This document shows positions 2,957 to 63,794 of a stretch of 64,000 nt of DNA, piece after piece. Location of the stretch: positions 27,861 to 91,860 of the forward strand of contig CALJVA010000118.1 of assembly GCA_937975135.1 (NCBI GenBank), read 5' to 3'. The translations under genes and the position numbers were made by a program. The first letter of the stretch is position 1. Every line of letters starts with the position of its first letter. This stretch comes from an uncultured Thermoactinomycetaceae bacterium (GTDB taxonomy: Bacteria; Bacillota; Bacilli; Thermoactinomycetales; CALJVA01). Below the pieces are notes generated by a model. It was given only the letters and a program-made list of their open reading frames with translations, had not been told where the DNA came from and ran no database searches.

Positions 2957-3991
2957 GTGAAAAAAACGGTTTTGATTCTTATCTTGTCTATGATTGTGGT
3001 GATGCTTGTACTTCCATCGCTCATGGTTAATTTCTGGAAAGAGGAAGCTTCAGAGAAAGAAGAAGTAGCGGCAGCACCATTGGCCAATAAGGATGATCCT
3101 GTAATATCCGTATATCGTGTAGAAGAACAACGCATTATTGAAGTACCATTGGAAAAGTACATTCGGGGTGTTGTTGCTGCTGAAATGCCAGCTGACTTTC
3201 AGCTTGAAGCGTTAAAAGCACAAGCTCTTGCTGCTAGAACTTATATTGCTAACCGTTTGTTAACAGATCAAGGGACGGATATGGAGAAAATCGATGCGGC
3301 TGCTAAAGGATCACATGTTTCCGATAGTGTACAGCATCAAGTATATGAAAGTGATGAGCAACTAAAGGAGAAATGGGGCTCTGAATACGAAGAAAAAATA
3401 AAAAAGATTAACCAGGCCGTTCAGGAAACAAGGGGTAAAATCATACTTTATAATGGCAAGCCCATTTATGCAGCATTTTTTTCAACAAGTAACGGGCGAA
3501 CAGAAAATTCGGAGGATTATTTTGAGAAAGCTTACCCTTATCTTCGCAGTGTCTCCTCTATTTGGGATCAGAAATCACCAAAGTATATGGATCATAAAAA
3601 AATGACTGTGTCCGATGCAATTCAGCGTATAGAAAAAAAGACAGGAAAGAAAATCACACTTCCTGCAGGAGTTGGTGGTGACTGGATGAAGATTATAAAG
3701 CGAACTGCAGGTGGGCAAGTAGGAAAGGTGAAAATTGGAGATCAGGAATTAACGGGACGCGAGATAAGGGAAGCATTGGAGCTGGCATCTGCCGATTTTT
3801 CATGGAGTGTTCATAAGGAGACGATCATTTTCCAAACGAGGGGTTATGGGCATGGTGTTGGAATGAGCCAGTGGGGAGCAAACCTGATGGCGCAAGAAGG
3901 AAAGTCTGCTGAGGAGATTGTAAAACATTACTATCAAGGGGTAGAGATTGCTGATTTACAGCCATTACTTGCGTCGAAAAATGACAATTGA
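2957..3991 (+). CDS. spoIID: Stage II sporulation protein D (lytic transglycosylase)
   Basis: N-terminal TM segment. SpoIID-domain motifs are present (AQALAARTY, FFSTSNGRTE, GHGVGMSQWGA). The gene is syntenic with murA. Confidence 0.9.
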   Translation: MKKTVLILILSMIVVMLVLPSLMVNFWKEEASEKEEVAAAPLANKDDPVISVYRVEEQRIIEVPLEKYIRGVVAAEMPADFQLEALKAQALAARTYIANRLLTDQGTDMEKIDAAAKGSHVSDSVQHQVYESDEQLKEKWGSEYEEKIKKINQAVQETRGKIILYNGKPIYAAFFSTSNGRTENSEDYFEKAYPYLRSVSSIWDQKSPKYMDHKKMTVSDAIQRIEKKTGKKITLPAGVGGDWMKIIKRTAGGQVGKVKIGDQELTGREIREALELASADFSWSVHKETIIFQTRGYGHGVGMSQWGANLMAQEGKSAEEIVKHYYQGVEIADLQPLLASKNDN

Positions 3992-4065
3992 TTATATTGG
4001 TTCGTAATGATTGCTACCTATAAAAACGACACGGTTCAGAGACCTACACTTGCTTAAATATAGAA

Positions 4066-4110
4066 AGAGCCTTTATGCCTATTCAAAAGGGATTAAAGGT
4101 TCTTTTTTTT
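4066..4110 (+). terminator. Rho-independent terminator after spoIID
   Basis: AGAGCCTTTA pairs with TAAAGGTTCT (one G-U pair), followed by T8. Confidence 0.7.
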
Positions 4111-4206
4111 GTGCAACAATTTGGTGTTGGAAAATACAAAACATTACTCATCTGAGGTATAAAATGAGAATTCCCTGTCGAGAATGATGTCTGAGGTGAT
4201 ATCTAA

Positions 4207-4878
4207 ATGAAACCCGAAGAACCAAATAAACGAATGAATAAGGTGGAAATGCCATTCCGCTTTAAGTGGAAACGGTTATTTGCGAAAAAGTGGGTTTTCC
4301 CAGCACTCTATATGGCAGCGGCTGCACTTATTTTCAGCATGGTTTGGTGGTACCAGACCAGCCGAGATTTTAGTGTAACTAAGCCAGATACAAAGTTACA
4401 GGAGACCGTTTTGAATACAGCGGAAGAAGAGACGGAGCAATTAATCGTTCCCGTTGCTAAGGAAAGCAAAGCAGAAATGAAGATGGGATTTTATGACGAT
4501 GCAGGATCAGAAAAATCAAAGGAAGCTTCTTTGGTGAAGTATGCCAATACCTACTGGCCCCACTCAGGGGTTGATTTTGCACGAAAAGATGGGAAAACCT
4601 TTGACGTTGTAGCTGCATTGAGTGGAAAAGTAATTCGTGTCGAAGAAAACCCCGTAATCGGTCATGTTGTAGAGATTGCACATGGTAATGGCTTGATTAC
4701 AGTATATCAAAGCTTAGCTAATGTCAAAGTAGCTAAAGATGATCAAGTCAGACAAGGTGATGTAATCGCAGAAGCGGGAAGAAATAACTTTGAAAAAGAA
4801 GCAGGTATTCATCTACACTTTGAGGTTCGAAAAGACCAACAAGCTGTGAACCCGGATCAATATTTAAAAATTAATTAG
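4207..4878 (+). CDS. spoIIQ: Stage II sporulation protein Q (TM anchor plus LytM/M23 domain)
   Basis: KKWVFPALYMAAAALIFSMVWWYQ and the LytM domain align closely with my recollection of B. subtilis SpoIIQ. The spoIID-spoIIQ-spoIIID synteny is also seen in C. difficile. SD GAGGTG. Confidence 0.8.
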   Translation: MKPEEPNKRMNKVEMPFRFKWKRLFAKKWVFPALYMAAAALIFSMVWWYQTSRDFSVTKPDTKLQETVLNTAEEETEQLIVPVAKESKAEMKMGFYDDAGSEKSKEASLVKYANTYWPHSGVDFARKDGKTFDVVAALSGKVIRVEENPVIGHVVEIAHGNGLITVYQSLANVKVAKDDQVRQGDVIAEAGRNNFEKEAGIHLHFEVRKDQQAVNPDQYLKIN

Positions 4879-6253: not shown

Positions 6254-6940
6254 ATGGATAAAATGAGGCGGCGACTGAAAGGCGGACAGACAGAATCTTT
6301 TCATCCTAACGAAGGAAGCATAAAGAAAAAGTTGCCTCGCTCACAAGAAGAAAGGAATCCGGAAGAGCGAATGCAAGAAGACGAGGAAGAAAACTTGAAG
6401 GAAAAGTCCGTATCAACAATAGCAACGGAGCCAGTAGGAACGTTAAAGTGGAAAAAGGAAGATTCTGCTTCTGAACAATGGGAGAGCGAATTAGATAAAG
6501 AATCCTCCCTTTTAAAAGTGGGAAAACTAAAATGGAAAAAAGAGGATGACCCATCTGAGGAACAAATCCCTTACTTAGATTCTAAATATGATAAGAACTC
6601 TTCACTTGTAAAAGAAGAAACAAATGAATTAGCAGCTTCAGCCCAATCATTAACCATGCAAAAAGATCCTAAACCTTCCCATGAAGCAGCAAAAATCAAG
6701 GGTGCTGATCAAAAGTCCGATCTTGCTGAAGAGAGTAAGAAAAAGCCGTTAGGACGGAGAATGCTCCGGCTATTTATTAAGATTACTTGGTTTCCTGCCC
6801 TTATAACCTTTGCTTTAATTATTGGTCTGATGATTGGTTATGGGGTACTGGGAGCAAAAGAGGTTGAGCAAGACTTATCTGTTGGAGATGTTTTTGATAT
6901 TGAACTATGGAAACATCTCTATAATTTGATATATGGCTAG
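6254..6940 (+). CDS. Acidic repeat protein with a C-terminal TM and an EpuA-like (PF11772-like) tail
   Basis: 228-aa ORF. It has two LKWKKED-containing repeats. The C-terminal LIIGLMIGYGVLG...DVFDIELWKHLYNLI resembles the EpuA family as I remember it. Confidence 0.5.
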   Translation: MDKMRRRLKGGQTESFHPNEGSIKKKLPRSQEERNPEERMQEDEEENLKEKSVSTIATEPVGTLKWKKEDSASEQWESELDKESSLLKVGKLKWKKEDDPSEEQIPYLDSKYDKNSSLVKEETNELAASAQSLTMQKDPKPSHEAAKIKGADQKSDLAEESKKKPLGRRMLRLFIKITWFPALITFALIIGLMIGYGVLGAKEVEQDLSVGDVFDIELWKHLYNLIYG

Positions 6941-7059
6941 GAAAACCCGCCTTTCGCTGCAAACTTCTTATTGTAGCAAGGCGGGCTGTTTTCCATCCAC
7001 ATACGCAAAGGTACAAATCGGTTATAATAGAATGATGGGATAGGCGAGGAGGGACCCTG

Positions 7060-7581
7060 ATGAATTTGCCCAACTTATTAACTTTGTTTCGCTTTGCTTT
7101 GATTCCAATCTACATAGTAGTTTTTTTCTCAGATATACCTGGACATATGCAATGGGCATTCGGGGTTCTTCTCTTAGCTGGGTTAACGGATGTTCTTGAT
7201 GGATATTTGGCTCGCCGAAATCATCAGGTTACAAAAGTGGGCGTGATGTTAGATCCTTTGGCCGATAAAATGATGATGATCGCTGTCTTTTTAAGCTTAC
7301 TAATTGCACAACGAATCAGCTTAGGGGCGGCACTGGCTATTTTTATGCGTGATATAGGGATGATCGTGGGAGCAGGGATCTTTCATATTCGAGGAAAGCT
7401 TACGGTTCCTGCGAATAAACTGGGCAAATTAACTACGTTCTTATTTTATGTGGCGCTTTTTCTTATCATGTTTGAACTTTCGATGGCGGAAACGTTTTTA
7501 TGGGGAGTTATTATCCTTTCGTTTATCACTTTGATTGTCTATATTGTTCAGTTTAAACAGTTAAACAAAGAACAGCAATAA
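7060..7581 (+). CDS. CDP-alcohol phosphatidyltransferase family protein (PgsA-like)
   Basis: N-terminus MNLPNLLTLFRFALIPI. Carries the D-G-x2-A-R...G-x3-D-x3-D motif (DVLDGYLARR...GVMLDPLADK). Multi-TM. Confidence 0.85.
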   Translation: MNLPNLLTLFRFALIPIYIVVFFSDIPGHMQWAFGVLLLAGLTDVLDGYLARRNHQVTKVGVMLDPLADKMMMIAVFLSLLIAQRISLGAALAIFMRDIGMIVGAGIFHIRGKLTVPANKLGKLTTFLFYVALFLIMFELSMAETFLWGVIILSFITLIVYIVQFKQLNKEQQ

Positions 7582-11533: not shown

Positions 11534-12454
11534 ATGAAAGTACTGGTGACAGGAGGAGCAGGTTTTATTGGCTCCCATATTGTTGATAAACTGATCGATC
11601 GCGGTGACCGTGTGGTTATCGTGGATAATTTAAGTACTGGAACAAAGGCTCATCTTCATCCTGAGGCAACCTTTTATCATATGGATATCCGTGAAGAACG
11701 TCTATTTGAAGTATTTGATTTGGAGCGCCCAGAAGTAGTAATCCACCAAGCAGCTCAAAATAATGTTCCTACATCATTATCCGATCCAATTTATGATGCA
11801 GAGGTAAATATTATTGGTACCATCCGGCTGTTGGAAGCATGTCATCGTGCTCAGGTAAAGAAGGTGATCTATGCATCTTCAGCTGCTCTATATGGTGACC
11901 CCTGTTATTTGCCCATCGATGAAAAGCATCCTGTTTCTCCACAGTCCGCATATGGGATTTCAAAGTACGTTCCAGAGCATTATCTTAAAATGTATGCTAA
12001 TTTGTATGGTCTTAAATATACAATTTTACGTTATGCCAATACTTATGGACCACGACAAGGCTTACATGGTGAAGGAGCTGCAATCCCCTCATTTATTAGT
12101 CGAATGATACAGAAGAAACCGTTACTTGTTACAGGAGATGGCGAACAGACACGTGATTATATCTATGTGGAGGATATCGCTTATGCCAATTTGGCGGCGA
12201 TTGATAATGGGGATGGAGAAATATTAAATATTGGTACTGGAATCTCTACTTCTCTTAATCACCTTATTAAAATATTAGAAGAAATATCAGGGGAAAAATT
12301 AGAAGTCAATTATGTACCGAAACGTCCGGGAGATATCAAGGATAGCTATTTTGATAACCACTTAGCAAAGAAAAAGTTAAATTGGTTTCCGCAAACGGAT
12401 CTACCCACAGGTTTAAAGCGAACCTTTGAGGCATGGAAAAAAGGAAAGGTATAG
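11534..12454 (+). CDS. NAD-dependent sugar epimerase (GalE-like UDP-hexose 4-epimerase)
   Basis: VTGGAGFIGSH Rossmann motif, SSAALYG, and the YGISKY catalytic Y-x3-K. Confidence 0.85.
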   Translation: MKVLVTGGAGFIGSHIVDKLIDRGDRVVIVDNLSTGTKAHLHPEATFYHMDIREERLFEVFDLERPEVVIHQAAQNNVPTSLSDPIYDAEVNIIGTIRLLEACHRAQVKKVIYASSAALYGDPCYLPIDEKHPVSPQSAYGISKYVPEHYLKMYANLYGLKYTILRYANTYGPRQGLHGEGAAIPSFISRMIQKKPLLVTGDGEQTRDYIYVEDIAYANLAAIDNGDGEILNIGTGISTSLNHLIKILEEISGEKLEVNYVPKRPGDIKDSYFDNHLAKKKLNWFPQTDLPTGLKRTFEAWKKGKV

Positions 12455-12613
12455 CATTTTTGCTTTGCTTGAAACATTTTACGCAAAAAACTCGTCTACT
12501 ACTATAGGTCCTAAAATCATAAAGCTTCCGCAATGTAACAGAAAGATACATGATGAAACAGAGGTAAAAGAGAGGTGAAACATCTGCCACTAAAGGTGGA
12601 AGTAACATTCAAA

Positions 12614-12640
12614 CATATCTTGTCAAGATTACAAGATATG
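12614..12640. repeat. Perfect 10-bp inverted repeat (operator or terminator candidate)
   Basis: CATATCTTGT, 7 nt, ACAAGATATG, followed by CTTGTTGTGTTTTT. Confidence 0.4.
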
Positions 12641-12671
12641 CTTGTTGTGTTTTTAGTGGCAGTGGAGTGGA

Positions 12672-13313
12672 GTGCAATCAAAGATGTTTTATGGAAGTTA
12701 TACGCTAATGGGCAATGAACAAGAGACTTTGACTCGTTTTTACCCATATTTTAAGCGTGCTTTCGAACTTATTTTTTCTGTCACCCTTTTATTCCTAACT
12801 CTACCGGTACTTCTCCTGAGTATGTTGTTGATCAAGTTGGAGTCTAGGGGACCTGTCTTTTACCGTCAGAAGCGTATTGGATTGGCTGGAAAAGAATTTT
12901 ATATTATTAAGCTTCGCTCGATGTATGTGGATGCTGAAAAAAATGGTCCTCAGTGGGCTAAAGCGAATGATCCACGGGTTACACGAGTGGGCCGTTTCAT
13001 TCGCTTAACTCGAATTGATGAGCTACCGCAACTTTTTAATGTGTTAAAAGGTGATATGAGTTTAATTGGGCCTCGTCCGGAACGCCCTGTGTTTACAGAG
13101 AAATTTGCCAAAGAGATTCCTGGATTTAAAAAGCGACTTTGTGTCAAACCTGGCATTACTGGATGGGCACAGGTAAATGGGGGATATAATCTAACACCAG
13201 CCCAAAAGCTGGAGATGGATTTGTATTACATACAGTCTCAATCTTTTCGCCTTGATCTAGAGATTTTGATTCGTACTGTTTGGGTCGTTCTATCCGGCCA
13301 TGGGGCACGATAG
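12672..13313 (+). CDS. Undecaprenyl-phosphate sugar phosphotransferase (small monotopic PGT, EpsL/PglC-like)
   Basis: One N-terminal hydrophobic segment. Motifs: [37 protein letters not shown]. Confidence 0.88.
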
Positions 13314-16723: not shown

Positions 16724-18958
16724 GTGAAAAAGTGGTTATCGCTAGGACTGATTATTCTCCTGTTAATAGTTTCTCTATTGGGTTGTCATCCCAGTACAAG
16801 GGATAACGAAATTGAGAGCGATGTAAAACCGGTAAATTCGGAGTGGGTGATTCAATGGAAAGGTGAGGTGGACCCATCCTTTCTTCAAACGGTGACGATT
16901 ATTCACCGTTCTGGAATCGAGGGACGCACCATGCTTGTAAGATTAAAGCAAGGTGTTGACGAGGAGAAATGGGTACAACGTTGGTCCTCCAATAAAAATG
17001 TGGAGTTTCTACATCCGAATCACAAATATAAAGTGGAAAGTCGCGTCTCTTTTGGTGAAAAACAACAGCGGGATTGGTATTATCTTGAGCAGACAGGGGT
17101 CAATAAAGCATGGCAACTACCTTTGCCAGAGAAACCCCGAGTAATTGTAGCAGTGGTGGATACAGGGATCGATTTGGACCATCCTGTGATAAAGCCTTAT
17201 TTGATCGAAGGGATTGATGTCCGAGACCCTGGACAGCTTCCTGATGACCGGGTTGGGCATGGTACGCGTGTTGCTGGTGTGATCGCTACCATTTTTGAAG
17301 GATGGGAATCAAAGGAAGAGAAAAAATCAATACGTATCATGCCTGTGAAGGTAATGGAAAATGGAAAAGATGGGGATGTCTATTTTACCTCAGAAGGAAT
17401 TCGTGAAGCGGTTCGACGAAAAGCGGATATTATTGTATTGGCTCAGGGAAGCTGGACTTATTCCGATACAATGGCTGATGCGATTAATCTAGCGGAAGAA
17501 GAAGGAGTAGTTGTGGTTGGGGCAGCAGGCAATGCAAAGCTGGATGATTTAGGGGGCATTGTTTATAATCGACCTCTCTACTATCCTGCTGCTTTACCTA
17601 CTGTATTAGCAGTAGGGTCTGTAGGGCCAAATCGACAATTGGAACCAACTTCTAATGTAGGACCTGGATTAGATGTTGTTGCTCCAGGGGAGTCGATCGG
17701 GGCTCCCACTGTGGGAGGAGGATATGGGACGGAGTCAGGAACTTCTTTTGCCGTTCCGCAGGTAGCCGCGTTAGCAGCTATGATTATAAAGTTATACCCT
17801 GATTTCACTCCCGCCCAGGTCCGAAACTTGATTCGGCAAACAGCAGATCCAATCGGTGATCGATGGAATGAGCAGGCTGGTTATGGACATGTCAACTTTT
17901 ATGCAGCCTTAACCACAGAACCTAAGCAAGATATTTTCGAGTTGAATGATTCAATAACTAGAGCGATTCCACTATCATTGAATCAGCAGATTCAAACATC
18001 AATCAAAAATGAAGAAGATGAAGACTGGTTCTCACTTACCACACCTCACGAAGGAACATTAACACTGAAAATAGCTAGTAAAGAGCAGGCAGAGATAAAC
18101 ATGCAAGTGATCATCGAACGTGATGGTCGTTCAGCAGAGTACAAGATCAATGGTCAAAGAGAAGTAAATTTATCGGTTCCTGGAGGAAGAGTTCTTCTGA
18201 AGGTAACTGCACCTGTACTGAATAAGCCCCTGGTCTATGAGTTGTCCAATCTGTTTCGTATAAAAGCTGACGAGTATGAAAACAATGATTACCTTTGGAA
18301 TGCACATAAATTAACATTGTCAAAGGATACCTTATATGTAGAGGGAACCTTTCATAAGAAAAGAGACGTGGATTGGTTTCGTCTGGAAATTCCCCGTCCG
18401 GGAAAACTGTGGATACAGCTTGATGTGACAACACCCCGGTCGGATCCTGTTCTTTATGTACAGGAAGCAGGGGCCGCCCATGGTCAAAAGGTTGATAAGG
18501 GTGGAGCTGGAGATTCGGAGTTTATCGAGCAAACTGTGTCCCAAGGTGCGATTTATATTCGTGTCTCCGATTTTGGCGGTAATGTGATTCTTGAGCCTTA
18601 TTTATTGGGAATTAAATATGAATCGCATTCAATTGACAGTTCAGAGCCTAATGATTTATCAGGTCAATCTACGTTGATCAGCCTTGATAAAAAAGTAAAA
18701 GGTGAGATTGACGGACCTGCCGACCTTGATTGGTACACTTTTTTTGTTGATGAAGAGTCAGAAGGAACGATTTGGTTGAATCACCGTGGGGTAAAGATGG
18801 TTGTATATGACTATCATCTCAACGCTTTAGGGCAGCTATCTGAACCATCACAAAAGTCGATTTCCCGACGATTTTCACCTGGGAGGTACTATATCCGAGT
18901 AGAGGCTGAAAGGGCTATTGGAGAGTATGAGATTTGGTTAGAATTAAACAAGGAATAA
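16724..18958 (+). CDS. S8 subtilisin-family serine peptidase lipoprotein with repeated C-terminal PPC-like domains
   Basis: Lipobox LLGC. Catalytic motifs VAVVDTGID, HGTRVAG and GTSFAVPQVA. There are three repeats containing 'D-x-DW(F/Y)' in the C-terminal 330 aa. Confidence 0.88.
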   Translation: MKKWLSLGLIILLLIVSLLGCHPSTRDNEIESDVKPVNSEWVIQWKGEVDPSFLQTVTIIHRSGIEGRTMLVRLKQGVDEEKWVQRWSSNKNVEFLHPNHKYKVESRVSFGEKQQRDWYYLEQTGVNKAWQLPLPEKPRVIVAVVDTGIDLDHPVIKPYLIEGIDVRDPGQLPDDRVGHGTRVAGVIATIFEGWESKEEKKSIRIMPVKVMENGKDGDVYFTSEGIREAVRRKADIIVLAQGSWTYSDTMADAINLAEEEGVVVVGAAGNAKLDDLGGIVYNRPLYYPAALPTVLAVGSVGPNRQLEPTSNVGPGLDVVAPGESIGAPTVGGGYGTESGTSFAVPQVAALAAMIIKLYPDFTPAQVRNLIRQTADPIGDRWNEQAGYGHVNFYAALTTEPKQDIFELNDSITRAIPLSLNQQIQTSIKNEEDEDWFSLTTPHEGTLTLKIASKEQAEINMQVIIERDGRSAEYKINGQREVNLSVPGGRVLLKVTAPVLNKPLVYELSNLFRIKADEYENNDYLWNAHKLTLSKDTLYVEGTFHKKRDVDWFRLEIPRPGKLWIQLDVTTPRSDPVLYVQEAGAAHGQKVDKGGAGDSEFIEQTVSQGAIYIRVSDFGGNVILEPYLLGIKYESHSIDSSEPNDLSGQSTLISLDKKVKGEIDGPADLDWYTFFVDEESEGTIWLNHRGVKMVVYDYHLNALGQLSEPSQKSISRRFSPGRYYIRVEAERAIGEYEIWLELNKE

Positions 18959-19203
18959 GGATTCTTTCTGTTTGGTAGAGATAAACACAGAAAACGTGTA
19001 TACTAAAAAATATCCTATCTTGATGGTAGGAGCATTTAAGAACGGACAAGCCTTAAAGACCGGTGAAATCCATCCAATAAGCGTGTGGGGCGTTATACAT
19101 TGGAATTCTATACATCGCTCTTAGGAAAGTGGGTTTAAGAAGGCAAAAGTACTTAACGAAGAAATGTGTTTTTCCCTATAAACAGGGAGGAGGGAGAGCT
19201 TGA

Positions 19204-20406
19204 ATGTCTGCTAAACAAAAAAGAAGCTTATTTACATCTGAATCCGTAACAGCTGGACACCCTGATAAGATATGTGACCAGATTTCAGACGCGATATTGG
19301 ATGCGATTTTAGCTAAGGACCCAAACGCCCGTGTTGCTTGTGAAACCTCGGTAACTACAGGCTTGGTACTTGTTTCTGGGGAGATTTCAACCACTTGCTA
19401 TGTGGATATTCCACGAATTGTCCGGGATACATTAAAAGAGATTGGGTATACCCGGGCAAAGTATGGTTTTGACTATGAGACAAGTGCGGTTCTTACATCT
19501 ATTGATGAGCAATCAGGTGATATCGCTGCAGGGGTAAATGAAGCACTGGAAAAGCGAGAAGGATTGATGAGTGAAGATGAGATTGAGGCGATTGGCGCAG
19601 GGGATCAAGGGATTATGTTTGGGTTCGCTACCAATGAAACACCCGAACTGATGCCCTTACCTATTTCACTCGCTCATCGCTTGGCGCGGCGTCTACATGA
19701 AGTTCGAGTTAACGGTACCCTACCTTATTTGCGTCCAGATGGGAAGACTCAGGTAACAGTCGAGTATGAAGAGGACCGTCCAATCCGGATTGATACAGTT
19801 GTGGTTTCAGCTCAGCATGCTGAGGAGATAACACTTGAGCAGATTAAAGAGGATATCATAAAACATGTGATAAATCCGATTGTTCCTGAATCAATGCGAG
19901 ATGATAAGACCAAGTATTTTATCAATCCTACGGGCCGATTTGTGATTGGTGGGCCAATGGGAGATGCTGGTTTAACGGGGCGAAAGATCATTGTTGATAC
20001 TTATGGAGGTTATGCCCGTCATGGAGGCGGTGCTTTCTCTGGAAAGGATCCGACCAAGGTGGATCGCTCAGGAGCCTATGCCGCTCGCTATGTGGCCAAA
20101 AATATTGTTGCTGCAGGATTAGCAGATAAATGTGAGGTTCAAGTTGCTTATGCAATTGGTGTCGCTCAACCAGTATCCATTCGAATTGATACCTTTGGGA
20201 CTGGGGTAGTGGAGGAAGAGCGACTGGTTCAGCTAGTTCGGAAACACTTTGATCTGCGTCCAGCAGGAATTATTCGTGCTCTTGACTTGCGCCGACCCAT
20301 TTATAAGCAAACTGCAGCTTATGGTCATTTTGGCCGTACTGATTTGGATCTTCCATGGGAGAGGACAGATAAGGCTGAGGTGTTACGTGCAGAGGCAGGA
20401 TTATAA
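19204..20406 (+). CDS. metK: S-adenosylmethionine synthetase
   Basis: [37 protein letters not shown] and DTYGG. Confidence 0.97.
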
Positions 20407-55296: not shown

Positions 55297-56160
55297 ATGG
55301 GAAAACCGATGGCGAAATTGTTGGGGAAGAAAGGTCTTGTCATTTTATTTACGCTTTTTTTATCTGTGATGTTAACCGGTTGTGGAGAATTGATTGAGGC
55401 TTTATCGAAAGTAGGAACAGCAACAGAACAAAAAGAAAAGGCAAAGGAAGAAAAAGAAGAACTTACTGCTGAAAATGTTCTAAAGAAGAATCGGGAAGAA
55501 ATGGACAAGGTAAAAGGTTTTTCCTATACTGCGAATGGAGAGATGAAAATCTCTGGGGATACGGGGACAGGAATTTCCGCTAACCTATCCATTAAGATTA
55601 AACAGGATTCGGAAGTTTTAATTGACTCTCCCGATGTACACCATAATATCTCGTTCCAAGCTATGGGTGAATCCAAGAGCTGGGAAGTATATTTTGTAGA
55701 TGGAACATTTTATAGCAATGAAGATGGTTTTTGGACGAAGAAAAGTGGCTTAAGTGGTTTTGACTTTGGAAGTATTAGTATTGTAGATGATCCTCATGTT
55801 ACACTCAAACAGCTGCGGAATGAGTCAGATCCTAAAATGAGCCAGGAATCAGGTTCTTATGTTTTTGAACTGGAAGTCCCTCAAGAAAAATCAAGTCTTT
55901 TCTTGAGAGGAATTCTAGAAGGGATTATGGAAGAGTTGTCACCAACCAATTCCAATTCTTCGACCATCAAAAAGAAAATCTGGCTAGATGAAAAAACTTT
56001 TTTGCCCACCAAAATGGAACAATCCCTCGAATTAACTTTTCCTCCCAGTGGTGGAGATAATCCTGAAAAGATCGAGCTTGTTCTGGAAGCTTCAATCACA
56101 GGGCAGATCGATCAAGTAAATGTTCCCTCTCATGTTGTACATGGTGCAATAGAAAATTAA
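55297..56160 (+). CDS. Putative lipoprotein, unknown function
   Basis: Signal peptide with lipobox LTGC. The mature domain is beta-rich. I recognise no family. Confidence 0.65.
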   Translation: MGKPMAKLLGKKGLVILFTLFLSVMLTGCGELIEALSKVGTATEQKEKAKEEKEELTAENVLKKNREEMDKVKGFSYTANGEMKISGDTGTGISANLSIKIKQDSEVLIDSPDVHHNISFQAMGESKSWEVYFVDGTFYSNEDGFWTKKSGLSGFDFGSISIVDDPHVTLKQLRNESDPKMSQESGSYVFELEVPQEKSSLFLRGILEGIMEELSPTNSNSSTIKKKIWLDEKTFLPTKMEQSLELTFPPSGGDNPEKIELVLEASITGQIDQVNVPSHVVHGAIEN

Positions 56161-56209: not shown

Positions 56210-56273
56210 CTGTTTCGCTTTCGTCTCTTCTTTCACTTTCGTTATAATAATTTGGGAAGTGGAGGGAAGTACA

Positions 56274-56837
56274 GTGAAATTACCATTTGCTACAGCTAAT
56301 GAAGGTAAATTAGAGGAAGCAAGGCGAGTACTCGCTCCATATGGAATTGAAGTAGTTCCATTAAAAGTAGATATATGGGAGCCGAAAGAGGGATCTGTTT
56401 CAGAGATCGCCTTAGAGAAACTACGTCAAGTGCGTGCACAGGGTTATCAGCGTGTCATGGTGGATGATACTGCTATTTTTTTTGCCGCATATGATCAGTT
56501 TCCAGGAGTTCTTACCAAGCGAATTTTTGATCGTATCGGATATCGGGGCATTATGAAGTTGTTAGAGGGGGAATCACGAGCCGCTTGGTTTGAAGGAGCG
56601 GTAGCCGTCGCATGGGATGATACGGAAGCTTGTTTTACAGCTCGAACCTATGGGGAGATTATTACTTGTGAACCTGAAAAAATTGTAATGCAACCGGGAA
56701 TGCCTTTTAATCCGATCTTTATTCCAGAAAATGAACAGCGAGTTTGGGCGGATCTTTCTTTTGAGGAACAACTGAAAATTTCCTATCGTGGAAAAGCTCT
56801 GAGGCAATTGGCTGACTGGCTCCAAAGAGCGGTTTGA
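56274..56837 (+). CDS. Non-canonical purine NTP pyrophosphatase (Ham1/RdgB family)
   Basis: FATANEGKLEEA at the N-terminus and Ham1-like length. The GTG at 56274 follows GGAGGG. Confidence 0.65.
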   Translation: MKLPFATANEGKLEEARRVLAPYGIEVVPLKVDIWEPKEGSVSEIALEKLRQVRAQGYQRVMVDDTAIFFAAYDQFPGVLTKRIFDRIGYRGIMKLLEGESRAAWFEGAVAVAWDDTEACFTARTYGEIITCEPEKIVMQPGMPFNPIFIPENEQRVWADLSFEEQLKISYRGKALRQLADWLQRAV

Positions 56838-56896
56838 TAGTGTAAGGATATGGGATCTGTTCGATCGATCTGATCGATTTTAAGAAAACAAAAGAA

Positions 56897-56925
56897 TTGA
56901 CAGTCCTTTGGGATCATGTTAAGCT
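56897..56925 (+). promoter_or_regulatory. Possible his operon promoter
   Basis: TTGACA, 17 nt, TAAGCT (weak -10). An alternative TGGTATATT lies just downstream. Confidence 0.3.
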
Positions 56926-56978
56926 ATGGTATATTCTTTATCTCATTAGCGAACTAAAGTGATCTAGGGGTGAGGTGA

Positions 56979-58160
56979 ATGGTGGATCAACGTCGATTTG
57001 AAAAGCCAGCGGGGTTTCGTGATTATCCTCCGCCACTGGCGGAGAAAAAACGGGCCCTAGAAGAAAAGATTCGGAAAGCGTTTTGCCGTTGGGGATACCA
57101 GGAAGTGCTCACCCCTACATTGGAATACTTCGAGACTGTGGGTGAAGCGAGTGTAATCGAAGAAAAGAGGATATTTAAATTAATTGATCGAGAAGGAAAA
57201 ACACTCGCTTTGCGACCAGATCAAACCGCGCCGATTGCTCGGGTAGTTTCTACATCTTTAGGTGATGCGCCTCTACCCTTACGCCTCTTTTATCAGACCA
57301 ATGTTTTTCGGGCACAGGAGGAGAGAATGGGGCGCGATGCGGAGTTTTTTCAATCTGGAGTGGAGTTGATTGGGGAACCAACTCCAGAAGGGGATGCTGA
57401 AGTGATTGCTTTGGCTGTAGAAGTGCTGCAGATATGTAAGATCCCTTCTTTTCGTCTGGTAGTGGGTCATGTAGGGTTGTTACATGATTTGCTTCAGGAA
57501 ACCGTTGGTGAATCACAAATGATCCAAAAATTGAAGCAAGCTTTACGGGAGCGGGACAATGTGGGATACCGCCAACTGGTACAAGAAGCGAAATTGAGCA
57601 CGAATCACCGAGCATTTCTCCTTTCTCTGCTTAGTCCAAAAGAACAGTTTTCTCTTTTGGAAGGGATTCAGGATAAATTTCACTCATCTGAAATTGAGCA
57701 AAGCGTAGCTTACCTAAGAGCATTGTGGGAGGCGCTACAAGATTATGGTGTATCTAACAACGTTACTTTTGATCCCCTGTTGACAGGAAGTTTGTCTTAT
57801 TACACAGGAGTTTACTTTGAAGGGTATGCCAATGCACTTGGTTTCCCACTGTTAAGTGGTGGGCGATATGATCGACTGATGGAACGATTTGGTCGCTCGG
57901 CAGGGGCCACAGGTTTTGCGATTAAAATCGACCGCTTAATGGAGGTTTGTTTACACATCCCTTGTAAAACAAGGCGTATAGCTATTCTTTTTTCACAAAA
58001 AAAGAGAAAAGAGGCGATTACAAAGGCAATGCGATTACGAAAGCAGGGATTGGCGGTTGTGCTTCAACCAATAGATCGACGAAATAAACTGTCAGAAGTG
58101 TGGAAATCATCTTTTACCCAGTGGATTGAGTTGAGAGAGGAGGAGGGAGATGAAAAATGA
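56979..58160 (+). CDS. hisZ: ATP phosphoribosyltransferase regulatory subunit
   Basis: HisRS-like catalytic-core paralog ([25 protein letters not shown]) lacking an anticodon domain. It precedes a short-form hisG. Confidence 0.9.
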
Positions 58161-58791
58161 ATTGACGATTGCCATGCCAAAAGGGCGTATCCTGAAGGAG
58201 GCCCTTGGTTTGCTACACAATGCGGGAATAGATGTGCCAACTCATATTGCTGACTCTCGAAAGTTAACAGTAAAACTGCCAGTAGAGGGGCTTTCTTTTT
58301 TTCTAGCTAAACCAACAGATGTTCCCACATATGTAGAATATGGTGTGGCAGATTTGGGGATTGTAGGCAAGGATGTCTTACTTGAGGAGGGCCGGGATGT
58401 ATATGAGCTCCTCGATTTGCAAATTAGTCCCTGTAGGATTAGTATCGCTGCATTGCCTGATTGGCAACCTGTACTGCACCCGCGCGTTGCGACAAAATAT
58501 CCACGTCTTACAGAACGGTATTTTCGCGGTCTTGGGCAGCAGGTAGAAGTGATTCGACTAAACGGGTCTGTGGAGTTGGCCCCCCTGATTGGGCTTGCAG
58601 ATCGTATTGTCGATGTGGTTTCTACCGGTCAGACCCTGAAAGAAAATGGCTTGGTTGAGCTTAAACAGATTACCTCAGTAACTGCTCGCCTAATTGCTAA
58701 CCGGGGAAGTTATCGGATGAAACGCAATGCGATCGGCATTTTGGAAGAGAAATTGGCTCTGGCGGTGGGGAAAAGGAAGGTGCTACAATGA
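58150..58791 (+). CDS. hisG: ATP phosphoribosyltransferase, short form
   Basis: [28 protein letters not shown] and [12 protein letters not shown]. At 213 aa it is the HisZ-dependent type. Confidence 0.95.
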
Positions 58792-60068
58792 TTGCCATTA
58801 AGGAGCCGCAAAGGCTGCTAAAGGAGCGGACAGCTGAAGGCATGGATGACCAGGAGCGAGCGGAGATCCTAGGAATTTTAAATGCGGTTAGGCGAGAGGG
58901 AGATGCGGCTTTACGCCGTTTAACAGCACAGTTTGATAGAGTTCAGTTGCAAGAACTGCGTCTCTCTTACGAAGAAATGGATGAAGCGCTCCATCATGTA
59001 TCTGAAGATTTTATAATGGCATTACGCCGAGCGGCCAGGCGAATTTATACGTATCATGAAAAGCAAACGTTTCACTCCTCCCTTATAACAGAAGAGGATG
59101 GAACGGTTTTGGGACAATTGGTTCGTCCATTGGAGCGAATAGGTGTTTATATACCTGGAGGACGGGCAGCCTATCCCTCTACTGTGTTGATGACCGTTAT
59201 ACCTGCTCGAGTTGCTGGTGTTTCAGAAATTGTAATGATGACGCCCCCAGGACCGGAGGGAAAGGTTGATCCTTCGATCTTGGTGGCAGCTCAGGAGGCG
59301 GGGGTGACAGAAATATGGAAGGTGGGTGGAGCACAGGCAATTGGGGCACTTGCATATGGAACTGAGTCGATCCGCAAAGTGGATAAGATTGTAGGTCCGG
59401 GTAATCGTTACGTAGCCCTGGCGAAACGGGAAGTTTACGGCCAGGTGGATATTGATATGATTGCAGGGCCCAGTGAAGTAGTGATTATTGCAGATGAATC
59501 TGCTGATCCCGCTTTTGTGGCCGCTGATCTATTGGCCCAGGCCGAACATGATCCCCTGGCCTCTGCGATTTTACTAACAACATGCAAAAAAATGGCTACT
59601 CAGGTGATCCAAGAGTTAAAATTCCAATATCGTGACTTAAAGCGCCGTCAGATTGTAGAGGCCTCGCTGCAAAAACAGGGTGCAATCTGCATTACCACCG
59701 ATCTGGATGAAGCTATTGATACTGCCAATCAATTAGCACCTGAGCATCTGCAATTGATGGTAAAGCAACCATGGAATTGGGTAGGGAAAATAAAAAACGC
59801 AGGAGCGATTTTTCTCGGTACTCATTCTCCCGAGGCGATTGGAGACTATATTGCCGGTCCAAGTCATGTGCTTCCAACCAATGGAACAGCTCGCTTTTTT
59901 TCTCCCCTTGGAGTGGATGATTTTATAAAGAAGTCGAGTCTTATTGCATATAGCAAAGAAGGTTTCCAGCGAGATGGTGCTGCTGTGATGTTGTTGGCGG
60001 AGAAGGAAGGCTTAGATGCACATGCTGCCTCGATCCGCGCCCGTCTTCAACAAAGGAGGGGAAATTAG
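58788..60068 (+). CDS. hisD: Histidinol dehydrogenase
   Basis: [16 protein letters not shown] and [13 protein letters not shown]. Confidence 0.95.
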
Positions 60069-60069
60069 G

Positions 60070-60663
60070 ATGGAAGGAGAACGAACAGCAAGCATTTACC
60101 GAGTGACAAGTGAAACGGAGGTTTCTTTAAATTTGTCGGTTGATGGAGAGGGGAAAGCTTCTCTTGCAACAGGTGTCCCCTTTCTGAATCATATGTTAGA
60201 TCTTTTTGCCAAACACGGTCAGTTTGACCTTGAAGTTATGGCGAAAGGAGATTTGGAGATTGACGATCATCACACAGTAGAAGATGTTGCCCTCTGTTTG
60301 GGAAAGGCTTTCCACCAAGCTTTGGGGAAGAAACAGGGAATTCGTCGTTATGGTCAAGCATGGGTACCGATGGACGATGCCTTAGGACAAGTGGTGATTG
60401 ATCTTTCTGGTCGATCTTATCTTCATTTTCAAGCCACTTTTCCTAGCCAACAGGTAGGAACATTTTCTACAGAGTTAGTTGAGGAGTTTTTTGCCAAGTT
60501 AGCACAGGAAGGACGATTTAATCTCCATGTGATTCTTCATTATGGACGCAATACTCACCATATGATTGAAGCCCTTTTTAAAGCATTGGGTCGTGCTTTG
60601 GATGAAGCGACACAGATTGATCCACGGGTGAAGGGAATTCCCTCGTCAAAAGGGGTGTTATAA
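60070..60663 (+). CDS. hisB: Imidazoleglycerol-phosphate dehydratase
   Basis: DDHHTVEDVALCLG, GRNTHHMIEALFKALGRAL and IPSSKG. The ATG at 60070 follows AGGAGGGG. Confidence 0.95.
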   Translation: MEGERTASIYRVTSETEVSLNLSVDGEGKASLATGVPFLNHMLDLFAKHGQFDLEVMAKGDLEIDDHHTVEDVALCLGKAFHQALGKKQGIRRYGQAWVPMDDALGQVVIDLSGRSYLHFQATFPSQQVGTFSTELVEEFFAKLAQEGRFNLHVILHYGRNTHHMIEALFKALGRALDEATQIDPRVKGIPSSKGVL

Positions 60664-61284
60664 GTGATGATTGCTGTTATTAGTGATCCGAGTGAAGGAG
60701 TTTCTGTGATTGGAAAGCGACTGGAAAAGTTGCAGGTACCCTACATAGAAACTTGTGATCCGGATCAGATTCGGCATGCCTCAGGAATAATTCTATCTTG
60801 TTCAGGGAATTTCGGACAAAAAATGCGCTTCCTTTCCCAACATCAGTTAACTCATGTGATCAAGGAAGAAGCGATAAAAGGGAAACCTTTACTAGGAATT
60901 AACCTAGGGATGCAGTTGCTTTTTACTAGCAGTGATGAAGATGGGTACCATCAAGGTTTAAACTTGTTGGCGGGTCATGTTCAACCTTATAAGGGGAAGG
61001 ATTACGATATTCATCTGGGTTGGCATCGACTTCGCTTTACACAGATGGATCCTCTGACCTGGGGATTGGAGGAACAAGAGGTGTATTTTGCACATCGTTT
61101 TGCAGTACAGGTTGCCAATCCGGAAGATTTACTTGGGAGAACTGATGGGGATCCTCCAGTTGTAGCGATTGTAGGGAGAAATAATATTTATGGAATTCAG
61201 TTCTGTGTTGAGAAAAGTGGTTCTCTTGGGTTAAAGTTGCTCCAAAGGTTTGTACATCAATGTAAGTTAAGGATGGACGTGTAA
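60664..61284 (+). CDS. hisH: HisH-like ImGP synthase subunit with a degenerate glutaminase active site
   Basis: It sits in the hisB-hisH-hisA position and is HisH-like throughout (LLGInLGMQLLF, HLGW, YFAH, GIQFcvEKSG). The catalytic Cys and His are replaced by Asn and Cys. Confidence 0.85.
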   Translation: MMIAVISDPSEGVSVIGKRLEKLQVPYIETCDPDQIRHASGIILSCSGNFGQKMRFLSQHQLTHVIKEEAIKGKPLLGINLGMQLLFTSSDEDGYHQGLNLLAGHVQPYKGKDYDIHLGWHRLRFTQMDPLTWGLEEQEVYFAHRFAVQVANPEDLLGRTDGDPPVVAIVGRNNIYGIQFCVEKSGSLGLKLLQRFVHQCKLRMDV

Positions 61285-62036
61285 TGGGAACATTTGTAAT
61301 CTACCCGGCGATAGATATTCGCGGTGGTGCTTGTGTTCGTCTGGTGCAAGGAGATTTCAGCCGAGAAACAGTGTATCATCGTGATCCAGTAGAGATGGGG
61401 ATTCGATGGGAGAAAGAGGGAGCGGAATGGCTGCACGTGGTTGATCTTGATGCAGCTCGTACAGGTATTATGACCAATCTCCCAATTATTAAAAAAATGA
61501 TTGCGGCTCTATCGATTCCAGTTCAAGTGGGAGGAGGTGTGCGGAACAAGGAGCAGCTAGAGATATTGCTAGAAGCTGGGGCAGCCCGTGTTGTCTTAGG
61601 TTCCGCTGCTGTGGATCACCCTGATTTTGTTAAAGAGGTACTGGCTGCTTATCCAGAGCAGGTAGTGGTAGGGATTGATGCGAGAGAAGGTAGGATTGCT
61701 ACCCATGGATGGTTAAAAACGACAGAAATACCAATGGAACAACTAGCTAAAAAAATGGCAGATTGGGGTGCCCAGAAGTTTATTTTTACCGACATTGGGC
61801 GTGACGGCACCTTAAAAGGACCTAATCTCAAGGAAATTCTGAAACTAGCAACAGCTAGCAAAGCTCAAGTGATTGCTTCTGGTGGAATTCGTTCGCTAAG
61901 TGATTTGCAGCGATTGGCACAGTATCAAGACAAGGGAGTCCAGGGGGCTATCGTGGGAAGAGCTTTATATACTGGGGATCTAGATCTTAAAGAAGCACTT
62001 TATTTACTTGCGAAACAAGGGGAGAGGAAATTTTGA
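61284..62036 (+). CDS. hisA: ProFAR isomerase
   Basis: IYPAIDIRGG, VGGGVR, GIDAREG, IFTDIGRDGT and ASGG. Confidence 0.95.
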   Translation: MGTFVIYPAIDIRGGACVRLVQGDFSRETVYHRDPVEMGIRWEKEGAEWLHVVDLDAARTGIMTNLPIIKKMIAALSIPVQVGGGVRNKEQLEILLEAGAARVVLGSAAVDHPDFVKEVLAAYPEQVVVGIDAREGRIATHGWLKTTEIPMEQLAKKMADWGAQKFIFTDIGRDGTLKGPNLKEILKLATASKAQVIASGGIRSLSDLQRLAQYQDKGVQGAIVGRALYTGDLDLKEALYLLAKQGERKF

Positions 62037-62797
62037 GCAGTAAGGCGATTATTCCTTGTTTAGATATAAGGAATCGACGGGTAGTATCAGGGATCTCTTT
62101 TGGCGATTTACAGGATGTGGGAGATCCGTTGGAGTTGGCCCTCCAATATGAACGAGAAGGAGCAGATGAGTTAATCCTCCTTGATATTTCACCTGCTGAG
62201 AGGGGAGACTCTTTCTGTGACCTAGTTCGCCAAATCGCAGAAGAGATTAGTATCCCCATTACCGTAGGTGGAGGGATTACTTCCTGTAATGATATTGAGG
62301 AAAGGTTGGTGGCAGGAGCGGACAAGGTTTCAATTGGTACCGCAGCGGTTTTACAGCCTGAATTGATCCAAGAGGGGGCACGTTTATTTGGAAGTGCTTC
62401 TCTTATGGCGGCGGTTGATGTTCGTTTTCATCCTCAGGAGAAGGACTGGTTTGTCTATATATATGGTGGACGCCAGGCGACTTCATGGCGTGTGGTTGAC
62501 TGGGCAATCCAGTTGGCGGAGTATGGAGCGGGAGTGATTCTCTTAACAAGCGTTGATCGAGATGGTCATCAGGAGGGTTATGATTTAGAGCTGATCAACA
62601 ATGTGAGTGAAGCTCTTCGGATTCCCGTTATCGCTTCAGGAGGAGCGGGTACATTGGATCATTTCACCACTCTTTTTACTAAAACGAGGGCGTTTGCTGC
62701 CTTGGCTGCATCTGTTTTTCACTTTGGATCTTTGTCGATCCCTCACCTGAAGCAATCTCTTTCCGAAAGTGGGGTACCTATCCGTGCTACATTTTGA
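62033..62797 (+). CDS. hisF: ImGP synthase cyclase subunit
   Basis: [48 protein letters not shown] and LAASVFHF. Confidence 0.95.
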
Positions 62798-63419
62798 CTT
62801 GGAGAAAGTTCGTTTTGATGAAAATGGTTTGGTTCCAGTGATCGTACAGGATCACCGGAGTAAAGAGGTACTCACCTTGGCATTTATGAACAAAGAGGCG
62901 ATTCAAAAAACAATATCTACCGGGGAGACCTGGTTTTGGAGCCGTTCTCGCCAATCACTGTGGCATAAGGGAGAAACCTCAGGAAATACCCAACAGGTCC
63001 TCTCTCTTACTCTTGACTGTGATGGTGATGCCTTGTTGGCTCGTGTGATTCCTAAGGGGCCTGCCTGTCATACCGGTAAGCAAAGCTGTTTTACTTCTGG
63101 TGAAGACCATTCATCTGACCATGTCAATACTGACCGCTTCGATATCTTGAATAAACTGGAGAATCGAATCGCTTTACGTGATCAAGACCGACCCCAAGGA
63201 GCATATACAACTTACTTATTTGAACAGGGTCTGGATAAAATATTGAAAAAAGTGGGTGAAGAAGCGTCGGAAGTGATTATTGCTGCTAAAAATAAATCCG
63301 CCCAGGAATTACGCTCAGAGACTGCAGATTTGATCTATCATTTAATGGTACTTTTGCGGGCTTCATCCCTTTCTCTCGATGAGGTGTTAGCTGAGTTGGA
63401 GAAGCGATTTGAGAAATGA
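62769..63419 (+). CDS. hisIE: Bifunctional phosphoribosyl-AMP cyclohydrolase / phosphoribosyl-ATP pyrophosphatase
   Basis: [34 protein letters not shown] and C.TG..SCF, then the HisE part (YTTYLF..G..KI.KKVGEEA.E). The true start may be 62784 or 62799. Confidence 0.93.
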
Positions 63420-63442: not shown

Positions 63443-63468
63443 GCTTCAAGACCTCTTGAAGCTTTTTT
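63443..63468 (+). terminator. Rho-independent terminator of the his operon
   Basis: GCTTCAAG, ACCT loop, CTTGAAGC, then TTTTTT. Confidence 0.85.
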
Positions 63469-63794
63469 ATTGTTGAAAGTGACTGGGGAATAGTAGGGGT
63501 TCAATTATTGGTAACAAAACGATCCGTCAAATCAGGGGATCGTGGGAAAGATAAAATATGACAATTTAGTAACATTTCTAGTCTATTCTCCTTCGTTTTG
63601 ACTCGAAGACAGAGTGATGAAATGGAGTAAGTATCGGAAGGTAACCGTTTATTTTAACCTTTCAAGGTAGAGGGGTTTTCTGTAAAAGGAATCACCAAAA
63701 TCGCTTACTCAATGTTATCACGGGCATAAATATGGTATACTTCATGCAAAGTACCAAACCACCAACGGTAGTTAATGTTGGTTGGAGGGGAATT

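Follow-up and report, generated by a model that had tools for sequence, protein, structure and literature searches.

A predicted glutaminase-dead HisH kept under purifying selection in a Thermoactinomycetaceae histidine operon, and the recurrence of such proteins in the family

Why should a bacterium keep, intact and in its proper place, a gene for the glutaminase subunit of imidazole glycerol phosphate (ImGP) synthase that has lost the residues with which it would attack glutamine? This question is raised by the hisH gene, and by its partner hisF, in a stretch of 64,000 nucleotides (hereafter the window) of contig CALJVA010000118.1 from an uncultured Thermoactinomycetaceae bacterium. ImGP synthase is the textbook model of ammonia channelling and long-range allostery, and the window appears to hold a natural version of it from which much of that machinery has gone. 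The answer that we favour, and that we regard as on balance probable, is that the hisZGDBHAFI(E) operon works, that its ImGP synthase has given up glutamine and its HisF runs on ammonia, and that HisH has been retained in a non-catalytic capacity.

The hisH open reading frame (ORF) starts with GTG at 60664, ends with TAA at 61282-61284 and occupies the orthologous slot between hisB and hisA. Its catalytic columns were set by HMMER alignment to the HisH structures 4gud, 1gpw and 7ac8, and also by MAFFT alignment with Thermotoga maritima and family sequences. In the column of the nucleophile (Cys84 in T. maritima) stands Asn80, encoded by AAC at 60901-60903 within GINLGMQ, and in that of the triad His (His178) stands Cys181, encoded by TGT at 61204-61206 within QFCVEKS; the triad Glu is retained, as Glu183 at the Glu180 column. 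The oxyanion strand reads S45-C46-S47-G48 (60796-60807) instead of PGVG, and the N-terminal loop that carries hN12 reads S7-D-P-S-E-G12 (60682-60699) instead of DYGMGN. All of these replacements, within an intact, full-length gene at its normal position in hisZGDBHAFI, had been described in the original prediction, which was made from the letters of the window by themselves; the coordinates, the ORF and the profile match bear it out, and the profile and structure alignments put Asn, Cys and Glu in the Cys-His-Glu columns. Because a Cys nucleophile, a triad His and a PGVG oxyanion strand are all missing, the window HisH is predicted to be unable to hydrolyse glutamine by the class-I glutamine amidotransferase (GATase) mechanism.

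The protein is nevertheless recognizably HisH. Its score on TIGR01855 is 125.8 bits, with the cut-off at 105.4 and a canonical Laceyella HisH reaching 227.3, and its AlphaFold2 model, with a predicted local distance difference test (pLDDT) score of 92.3 and a predicted template modelling (pTM) score of 0.91, has the alpha/beta fold of a class-I GATase, the top Foldseek matches being the HisH chains 4gud, 7ac8 and 1gpw at template modelling (TM) scores of 0.81-0.87. The residues hW123, hY138 and hK181, which the literature and the title of PDB entry 2wjz link to docking on HisF, have aligned equivalents in W120, Y141 and K184. As these are retained together with D98 and R249 of HisF, the dead HisH probably still docks on its partner. 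In the databases, copies of the window-type protein appear as a 192-residue version (P0001), gene callers having taken a later start.

Could such a gene simply be an artefact of sequencing or assembly, or a mis-assembly that happens to restore the frame? The closest long relative, the European Nucleotide Archive (ENA) contig L001, might encourage the thought, as it is full of split genes: pyrD, hisZ, hisIE, rapZ, cofD and whiA are all broken there, for example at 3265-4287, 6310-7493, 12118-12742 and 17041-19624. We considered genome decay for these splits and rejected it, since a gap of one nucleotide against two independent short-read contigs of the same species marks them as indel errors; these errors leave hisH untouched. 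Moreover, a HisH differing by one residue lies on at least seven independent contigs derived from the Sequence Read Archive (SRA), the four of these that were fetched carrying the same operon, and at least four more assemblies, again independent, encode HisH and HisF with 99.5% amino-acid identity to those of the window. A sister species (L001-L003), 89% identical, shares the Asn and Cys of HisH as well as the Ala5 and Val168 of HisF. Each catalytic substitution takes two nucleotide changes, as had been pointed out from the start as an argument against base errors, and the recurrence in independent contigs and in the sister species now confirms that argument. An artefact, including the mis-assembly that had been named as a possible refutation, is therefore next to impossible.

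The loss extends to HisF, whose columns were set by HMMER alignment to HisF structures and by MAFFT alignment with T. maritima and the family. Ala5 (GCG, 62045-62047) stands at the position of R5 and Val168 (GTG, 62534-62536) at that of E167; this pair, together with the retention of E46, D98, K99 and the catalytic Asp residues, had been read correctly from the sequence, with which the structure alignments agree, and to it must now be added Ser19 (62087-62089) at the position of K19, a loss absent from the earlier list. Retained in T. maritima numbering are D11, E46, D98, K99, D130 and R249 (D130 being Asp129, and K99 being K98, in the numbering of the window protein), along with G20 and F23, both important to cyclase function, and the GGG and SGGAG phosphate-binding motifs. 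Of R5, E46, K99 and E167, which according to the T. maritima and yeast structure papers form the gate of the ammonia channel, the window has A5, E46, K98 and V168, so that the gate is no longer complete. R5 and E167 are invariant in 64 HisF from the fetched loci, and R5, K19 and E167 in 121 database HisF, both sets including HisF from other dead-HisH lineages; with some 185 other HisF examined, R5 and E167 are replaced only in the window clade.

These replacements are part of a wider divergence. The window HisF is only marginally above the cut-off of TIGR00735 (300.0 versus 294.55 bits; 375.4 for a canonical relative), its identity to the family is 53% as against a family mean of 72%, and it is changed at 24 of 122 family-conserved positions. 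Among the changes are several in loops 1 and 2 (G15R, K19S, A54P, deletion of R59, M62F) and, at the bottom of the barrel, the gate changes R5A and E167V with F77I and V126M in strands that would lie nearby, by our reading of the strand order. The enzymological literature shows what the loss of K19 can mean: the K19A variant keeps a nearly intact ammonia-dependent cyclase (turnover number, kcat, 1.1 versus 2.4 per second; PMC11350729), and the same change weakens the glutaminase's allosteric activation (PMC8115485). HisF alone can also use ammonium salts in vitro at basic pH (PMC11350729). The loss of R5, E167 and K19 is most simply read as relaxed constraint on the gate and on allosteric coupling, once no glutaminase was left to couple; an adaptive opening of the channel is possible and is not required by the data.

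Does the operon around the two genes still work? The ORFs between 56979 and 63419 make up a complete set of eight intact his genes, in the order hisZGDBHAFI(E), each overlapping or abutting its neighbours:

56979 to 58160, forward strand: hisZ, ATP phosphoribosyltransferase regulatory subunit, with which the operon begins (ORF; orthologues in related loci with Pfam tRNA-synt_His and HisZ-like domains; ratio of nonsynonymous to synonymous substitution rates, dN/dS, 0.15 against L001)
58150 to 58791, forward strand: hisG, ATP phosphoribosyltransferase (ORF; orthologous to HisG genes in related loci; dN/dS 0.14)
58788 to 60068, forward strand: hisD, histidinol dehydrogenase (ORF; dN/dS 0.11)
60016 to 60663, forward strand: hisB, imidazoleglycerol-phosphate dehydratase (NF002115, 331 bits, matching residues 22-215 of the ORF; dN/dS 0.09)
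60664 to 61284, forward strand: hisH, class-I glutamine amidotransferase of 206 residues, predicted to be catalytically dead (profile, structure alignments, AlphaFold2 model; dN/dS 0.12)
61284 to 62036, forward strand: hisA, ProFAR isomerase (TIGR00007, 279 bits; dN/dS 0.14)
62033 to 62797, forward strand: hisF, cyclase subunit (TIGR00735, 300 bits; catalytic Asp11 and Asp129 intact)
62769 to 63419, forward strand: hisIE, bifunctional cyclohydrolase/pyrophosphatase, last gene of the operon (NF002747, 282 bits; dN/dS 0.12)

The stop codon of hisB abuts the start of hisH, and hisA overlaps both the stop of hisH (TAATG) and the start of hisF. The start of hisB at 60016, taken mechanically from the ORF, lies inside hisD; the real one is probably the ATG at 60070, because the profile matches only from residue 22 and this ATG comes immediately after the stop of hisD.

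Between the window and L001, hisH has a dN of 0.054 and a dS of 0.451, hence a dN/dS of 0.12, with 25 nonsynonymous differences over 479 sites and 46 synonymous differences over 136 sites (binomial P = 1.5e-14 against neutrality). The remaining seven genes of the operon range from 0.09 to 0.15, at dS values of about 0.45-0.8. The gene is not decaying, and purifying selection acts on it no less strongly than on the genes beside it; as an enzyme homologue that lacks essential catalytic residues and is nonetheless constrained, it is a pseudoenzyme, which had been put forward at the outset as a suggestion and is favoured by the ratio of 0.12 over a decaying gene. Since the window and L001 both carry the dead residues, the divergence between them accumulated after the glutaminase was lost, and the pathway therefore stayed under selection after the glutaminase had died.

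It is on this evidence that one must judge whether step 5 is blocked and the operon is in early decay in a histidine auxotroph, hisH being the first gene hit. The thought is not idle, as relatives have lost most or all of the other his genes at this locus, histidine biosynthesis seems often to be dispensable in the family, and the HisH and HisF of the window are the most degenerate of those examined. Yet eight intact his ORFs with dN/dS of 0.09-0.15, over the whole divergence from a sister species in which the dead residues were already present, speak of a time far too long for a useless operon to remain intact, and the same dead protein is found on contigs from several independent SRA runs. 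We consider early decay quite unlikely.

The rate of change, in turn, is uneven along the operon. With 13 canonical Thermoactinomycetaceae operons as the reference, HisH and HisF each retain 73% of the usual within-family identity and HisA retains 87%, whereas HisZ, HisG, HisD, HisB, HisI, Ham1 and PyrD retain 92-98%. The acceleration is thus specific to the two subunits of ImGP synthase, and essentially to those. One could take such joint and specific acceleration, with HisF changes clustered at the base of the barrel as well as in loops 1 and 2 and a HisF that barely clears its equivalog cut-off, as the mark of a pair that has taken on a new function, HisF catalysing another reaction or the two forming a regulatory pair while another enzyme makes ImGP. 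However, D11, D130, G20, F23, GGG, SGGAG, D98 and K99 are all kept; selection on the genes that act before and after step 5 requires that step 5 works; and HisF falls below the cut-offs of the paralogous families WbuZ (243 versus 299.7 bits) and AglZ/HisF2 (189.8 versus 310). No alternative ImGP-forming enzyme is known to us. Such a change of function seems very unlikely.

Is the window an isolated oddity? The closest homologues of its HisH are those of Thermoactinomycetaceae, and across this family the loss recurs; neither the recurrence nor the survival of dead HisH beyond the rest of the operon in relatives, described below, had figured in the original prediction. Among 174 family-centred HisH sequences the nucleophile Cys is absent from 19, being replaced by N, G, S, Q or H. 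By comparison, 147 of 150 diverse HisH cluster representatives are C-H-E, and the remaining three carry the family-type GLNLLPG motif. In a neighbour-joining tree the dead sequences stand beside canonical ones at five or more separate points (an approximate count, given a short tree that long-branch effects may distort), and P0027, which is C-H-E and sits in an operon, is nevertheless 81% identical to P0021, an orphan. The sequences thus indicate that the nucleophile has been lost repeatedly within the family. Three separate lineages of dead HisH, namely the window clade, the Baia clade of L016-L019 and the representative P0308, have Asn in the nucleophile column, and the less diverged dead lineages, those with the highest TIGR01855 scores, mostly have Gly or Ser, reachable in one step, as against the two-change Asn.

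The lineages can be arranged by how much of the operon remains. Canonical relatives have pyrD/ham1-hisZGDBHAFIE at the same place. A dead HisH within a full operon is found in the window clade (N-C-E), in L098 and L099 (G-Q-E), in L011 (G-H-E) and in L102 (G-H-E), and P0102 and P0112 probably belong here as well, HisF being encoded on contigs whose length matches theirs. In L004 the dead HisH is H-R-E and the operon can be read up to hisA; no hisF follows within the approximately 230 nucleotides up to the common end of the L004 and L005 contigs (protein P0003, the nearest outgroup), and Rfam reported nothing in the sequence 3' of hisA in L004. The two contigs end at the same point (L004 8165-8391, L005 8102-8328), and L006 diverges there, from about 1760, which suggests a repeat or mobile element where hisF of this outgroup should be. 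Further reduced are L100 (4330-5561) and L101 (1303-2534), in which hisB and a dead hisH (G-H-E) remain as a pair alone; about 1.5 kb 3' of the pair in L101 there is a gene for a phage-type integrase.

At the far end stand the orphans, in which hisH follows the gene for a Ham1/RdgB-like nucleoside triphosphate (NTP) pyrophosphatase, a gene that in this family constantly neighbours the his operon on the upstream side. In the window and in cultured strains these features are as follows:

Window, 56259 to 56837, forward strand: ham1/rdgB-like NTP pyrophosphatase, conserved upstream neighbour of the operon (Pfam Ham1p_like, E = 1.5e-32; synteny)
L016, 10001 to 10624: orphan hisH of Baia soyae DSM 46831, N-H-E, directly after ham1
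L017, 9268 to 9858, and L018, 10001 to 10594: orphan hisH of Thermoactinomyces sp. DSM 45891 and DSM 45892, N-H-E, directly after ham1
L019, 10001 to 10603: orphan hisH of Croceifilum oryzae DSM 46876, N-H-E, directly after ham1
L065, 10001 to 10606: orphan hisH of Polycladospora coralii, G-Q-E, directly after ham1

Orphan dead hisH genes also occur in three metagenomic lineages (L007-L009, L097 and L010). In cultured and metagenomic loci alike, no other his gene lies within 10 kb on either side, and ham1 sits 10-135 nucleotides upstream of every orphan (L007-L010, L016-L019, L065, L097), an arrangement that suggests co-transcription with ham1. Downstream, the junctions are of three kinds, namely Yip1(-)/prs, TPR/trx and LytR(-), which speaks for the operon having been reduced at least three times independently, with hisH spared each time. 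The orphans are constrained as well: dN/dS is 0.08-0.16 among the four cultured species of the Baia group and 0.18 between L008 and L097 (P = 1e-13 to 1e-22 against neutrality), with 0.06-0.12 for pyrD and ham1 beside them, a test that covers close pairs only, that is, the Baia group and L008/L097, Polycladospora and L010 being without a close partner. The classical HisF-docking residues are retained in orphan HisH. All dead HisH proteins pass TIGR01855, with 126-207 bits against the cut-off of 105.4, and hence are named HisH by annotation pipelines.

With relatives in view, a further explanation can be weighed, namely that a second, intact hisH or a recruited GATase elsewhere in the genome feeds HisF, the operon copy being a redundant paralogue that drifts away from catalysis. 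Only 64 kb of the genome are visible, so that a second intact hisH, which the original prediction had named as a find that would demote the gene to a decaying paralogue, may lie outside them, and other bacteria do have second HisH/HisF pairs, of the WbuY/WbuZ or HisH2/HisF2 type, for which NCBIfam models exist. Within those 64 kb, however, no other class-I GATase was found; the dead gene is the one in the orthologous hisB-hisA slot, translationally coupled to its neighbours; and its dN/dS of 0.12 would be unexpected for a redundant copy. In addition, the window HisF has lost gate and coupling residues on which any partner of the HisH type would depend, each cultured dead-HisH species has one HisH locus according to a family-motif scan of representative genomes, and it has been argued that HisF needs a matched HisH (PMC3896937). 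A second glutaminase is accordingly unlikely, if slightly less so than the other rival explanations considered above.

How does the pair compare with systems already described? With the canonical ImGP synthase of T. maritima and E. coli (1gpw, 7ac8) it shares the two genes, their operon position and their folds, the catalytic Asp pair, E46, D98, K99 and R249 of HisF, and the W123/Y138/K181 equivalents of HisH, and the HisH-HisF heterodimer probably still forms. What the canonical enzyme has and the window pair does not is the Cys-His pair, the PGVG strand, the hN12 loop, the R5/E167 part of the HisF gate and the allosteric relay residue K19; judged by these residues, glutamine hydrolysis, channelling and V-type allosteric activation cannot be expected to operate in the window pair as they have been described. 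A model for the dead HisH can be found within the same operon. HisZ is a dead paralogue of histidyl-tRNA synthetase that regulates HisG, ancient, widespread and characterized, and thus a pseudoenzyme serving as the non-catalytic subunit of a histidine-pathway enzyme; unlike it, the dead HisH is recent, has arisen recurrently in one family and also persists without any other his gene at its locus. HisH2/HisF2 and WbuY/WbuZ, which act outside histidine biosynthesis in the acetamidino modification of glycans, are HisH/HisF-like pairs that are catalytically active and located in glycan gene clusters, whereas the window pair lies in a his operon and its HisF scores below the cut-offs of both paralogous families.

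Closest in physiology is Corynebacterium glutamicum, a precedent for HisF living on free ammonia in vivo with hisH dispensable: according to unpublished observations reported in PMC3896937, deletion of hisH leaves the strain prototrophic and its growth on ammonium minimal medium unchanged, and the C. glutamicum HisF complements an E. coli strain that lacks hisH. The C. glutamicum HisH is, however, catalytically competent and complements an E. coli hisH mutant, whereas in the window the glutaminase appears to have been destroyed by natural substitutions and the gene conserved. The engineered variants hC84S and hC84A still fold, bind HisF and bind glutamine, with a dissociation constant (KD) of about 1.7 mM for hC84S (PMC8115485), which shows that a HisH without its nucleophile can remain a ligand-binding partner. 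Those are single laboratory changes, though; in the window HisH the triad His has gone too, along with the oxyanion strand and the N-terminal loop, which makes its binding of glutamine uncertain. The open-access literature yielded no paper on a HisH naturally without its nucleophile, or on a HisF without R5, K19 and E167, in keeping with the original prediction, whose author was not aware of any described natural ImGP synthase of this kind.

What, then, would the pair be doing? Under the reading of a working, ammonia-driven operon, HisF would make ImGP from PRFAR with free ammonia; that the window HisF uses free ammonia and forms ImGP and AICAR is what purifying selection on the whole pathway leads us to infer, and direct use of free ammonia had been suggested in the original prediction. 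HisH would be retained for a non-catalytic role, structural or regulatory, and at least part of that role is probably independent of the histidine pathway, because relatives keep a dead hisH beside ham1 without other his genes at the locus and under purifying selection wherever this could be tested. In this family the glutaminase would accordingly look like the part of the pathway that becomes dispensable first, and hisH like the gene that is lost last. The early loss of the glutaminase fits the sufficiency of free ammonia; the late loss of hisH is difficult to account for without some function of HisH that depends on neither the nucleophile nor the rest of the his operon at the locus.

This leads to a broader thought, which we hold more tentatively and rate at somewhat less than an even chance: HisH of this family may have a second role that requires neither glutaminase chemistry nor the histidine pathway, for example as a ligand-sensing, regulatory or scaffolding protein expressed with ham1, and the window may be an ammonia-only intermediate, its HisF already without the channel gate and the allosteric relay. 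Such a role would explain both the repeated loss of the Cys and the survival of dead hisH through independent two-sided deletions of the operon, as in Baia soyae and Croceifilum oryzae.

Several points weigh against the ammonia-driven operon and the pathway-independent role of HisH. Ammonia-dependent activity in vivo is deduced from patterns of selection, and with 64 kb visible a second hisH or another glutaminase may be encoded elsewhere. The HisF is unusually diverged, at 24 of 122 positions and about 5 bits above the TIGR00735 cut-off, and may be an impaired or altered cyclase. Furthermore, the HisF of the dead-HisH lineages L011, L098 and P0102/P0112 keep R5, K19 and E167; their loss is therefore not required for life without the glutaminase and may reflect relaxed constraint. 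As for the orphans, the loci seen extend 10 kb on either side of hisH, so hisF may lie elsewhere in those genomes, and the docking residues kept in orphan HisH could mean that a HisF-like, barrel-type partner is present there. A Shimazuella HisF search listed none of the orphan-hisH species, but it also omitted several relatives known to have HisF.

If the ammonia-driven operon is the right reading, the window holds a selected, glutaminase-less ImGP synthase within a recurrent family trend that ends in orphan pseudo-HisH. Nature would here have taken apart the glutaminase together with the channel gate and the allosteric relay, with selection still acting on the cyclase and the remaining pathway, so that the contribution of each element in vivo, and the life of HisF on free ammonia, could be tested on ready-made material. 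That dead HisH is retained again and again, even where the locus has no other his gene, suggests that a familiar protein has a function not yet described, and this function is accessible in the culture-collection strains DSM 46831, DSM 46876, DSM 45891 and DSM 45892. For metabolic reconstruction there is also a practical caution, since naming by the equivalog "HisH" may wrongly credit such organisms with histidine synthesis that depends on glutamine, or even with histidine synthesis of any kind.

As regards the expression of the operon, Rfam at gathering thresholds found no RNA family in the whole 64-kb window, and hence no T-box or other leader in the 141-nucleotide gap between ham1 and hisZ (56838-56978). 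Two sites at the ends of the operon were recognized as consensus matches only:

56908 to 56935, forward strand: promoter-like site 5' of hisZ
63443 to 63470, forward strand: terminator-like hairpin (63443-63462) followed by a T-run, directly 3' of hisIE

Upstream, between pyrD and ham1, the window encodes a DUF6612 protein with a lipoprotein-like N-terminus (55297-56160), which is not at that position in the Baia-group loci and is kept in L004 with 78% identity.

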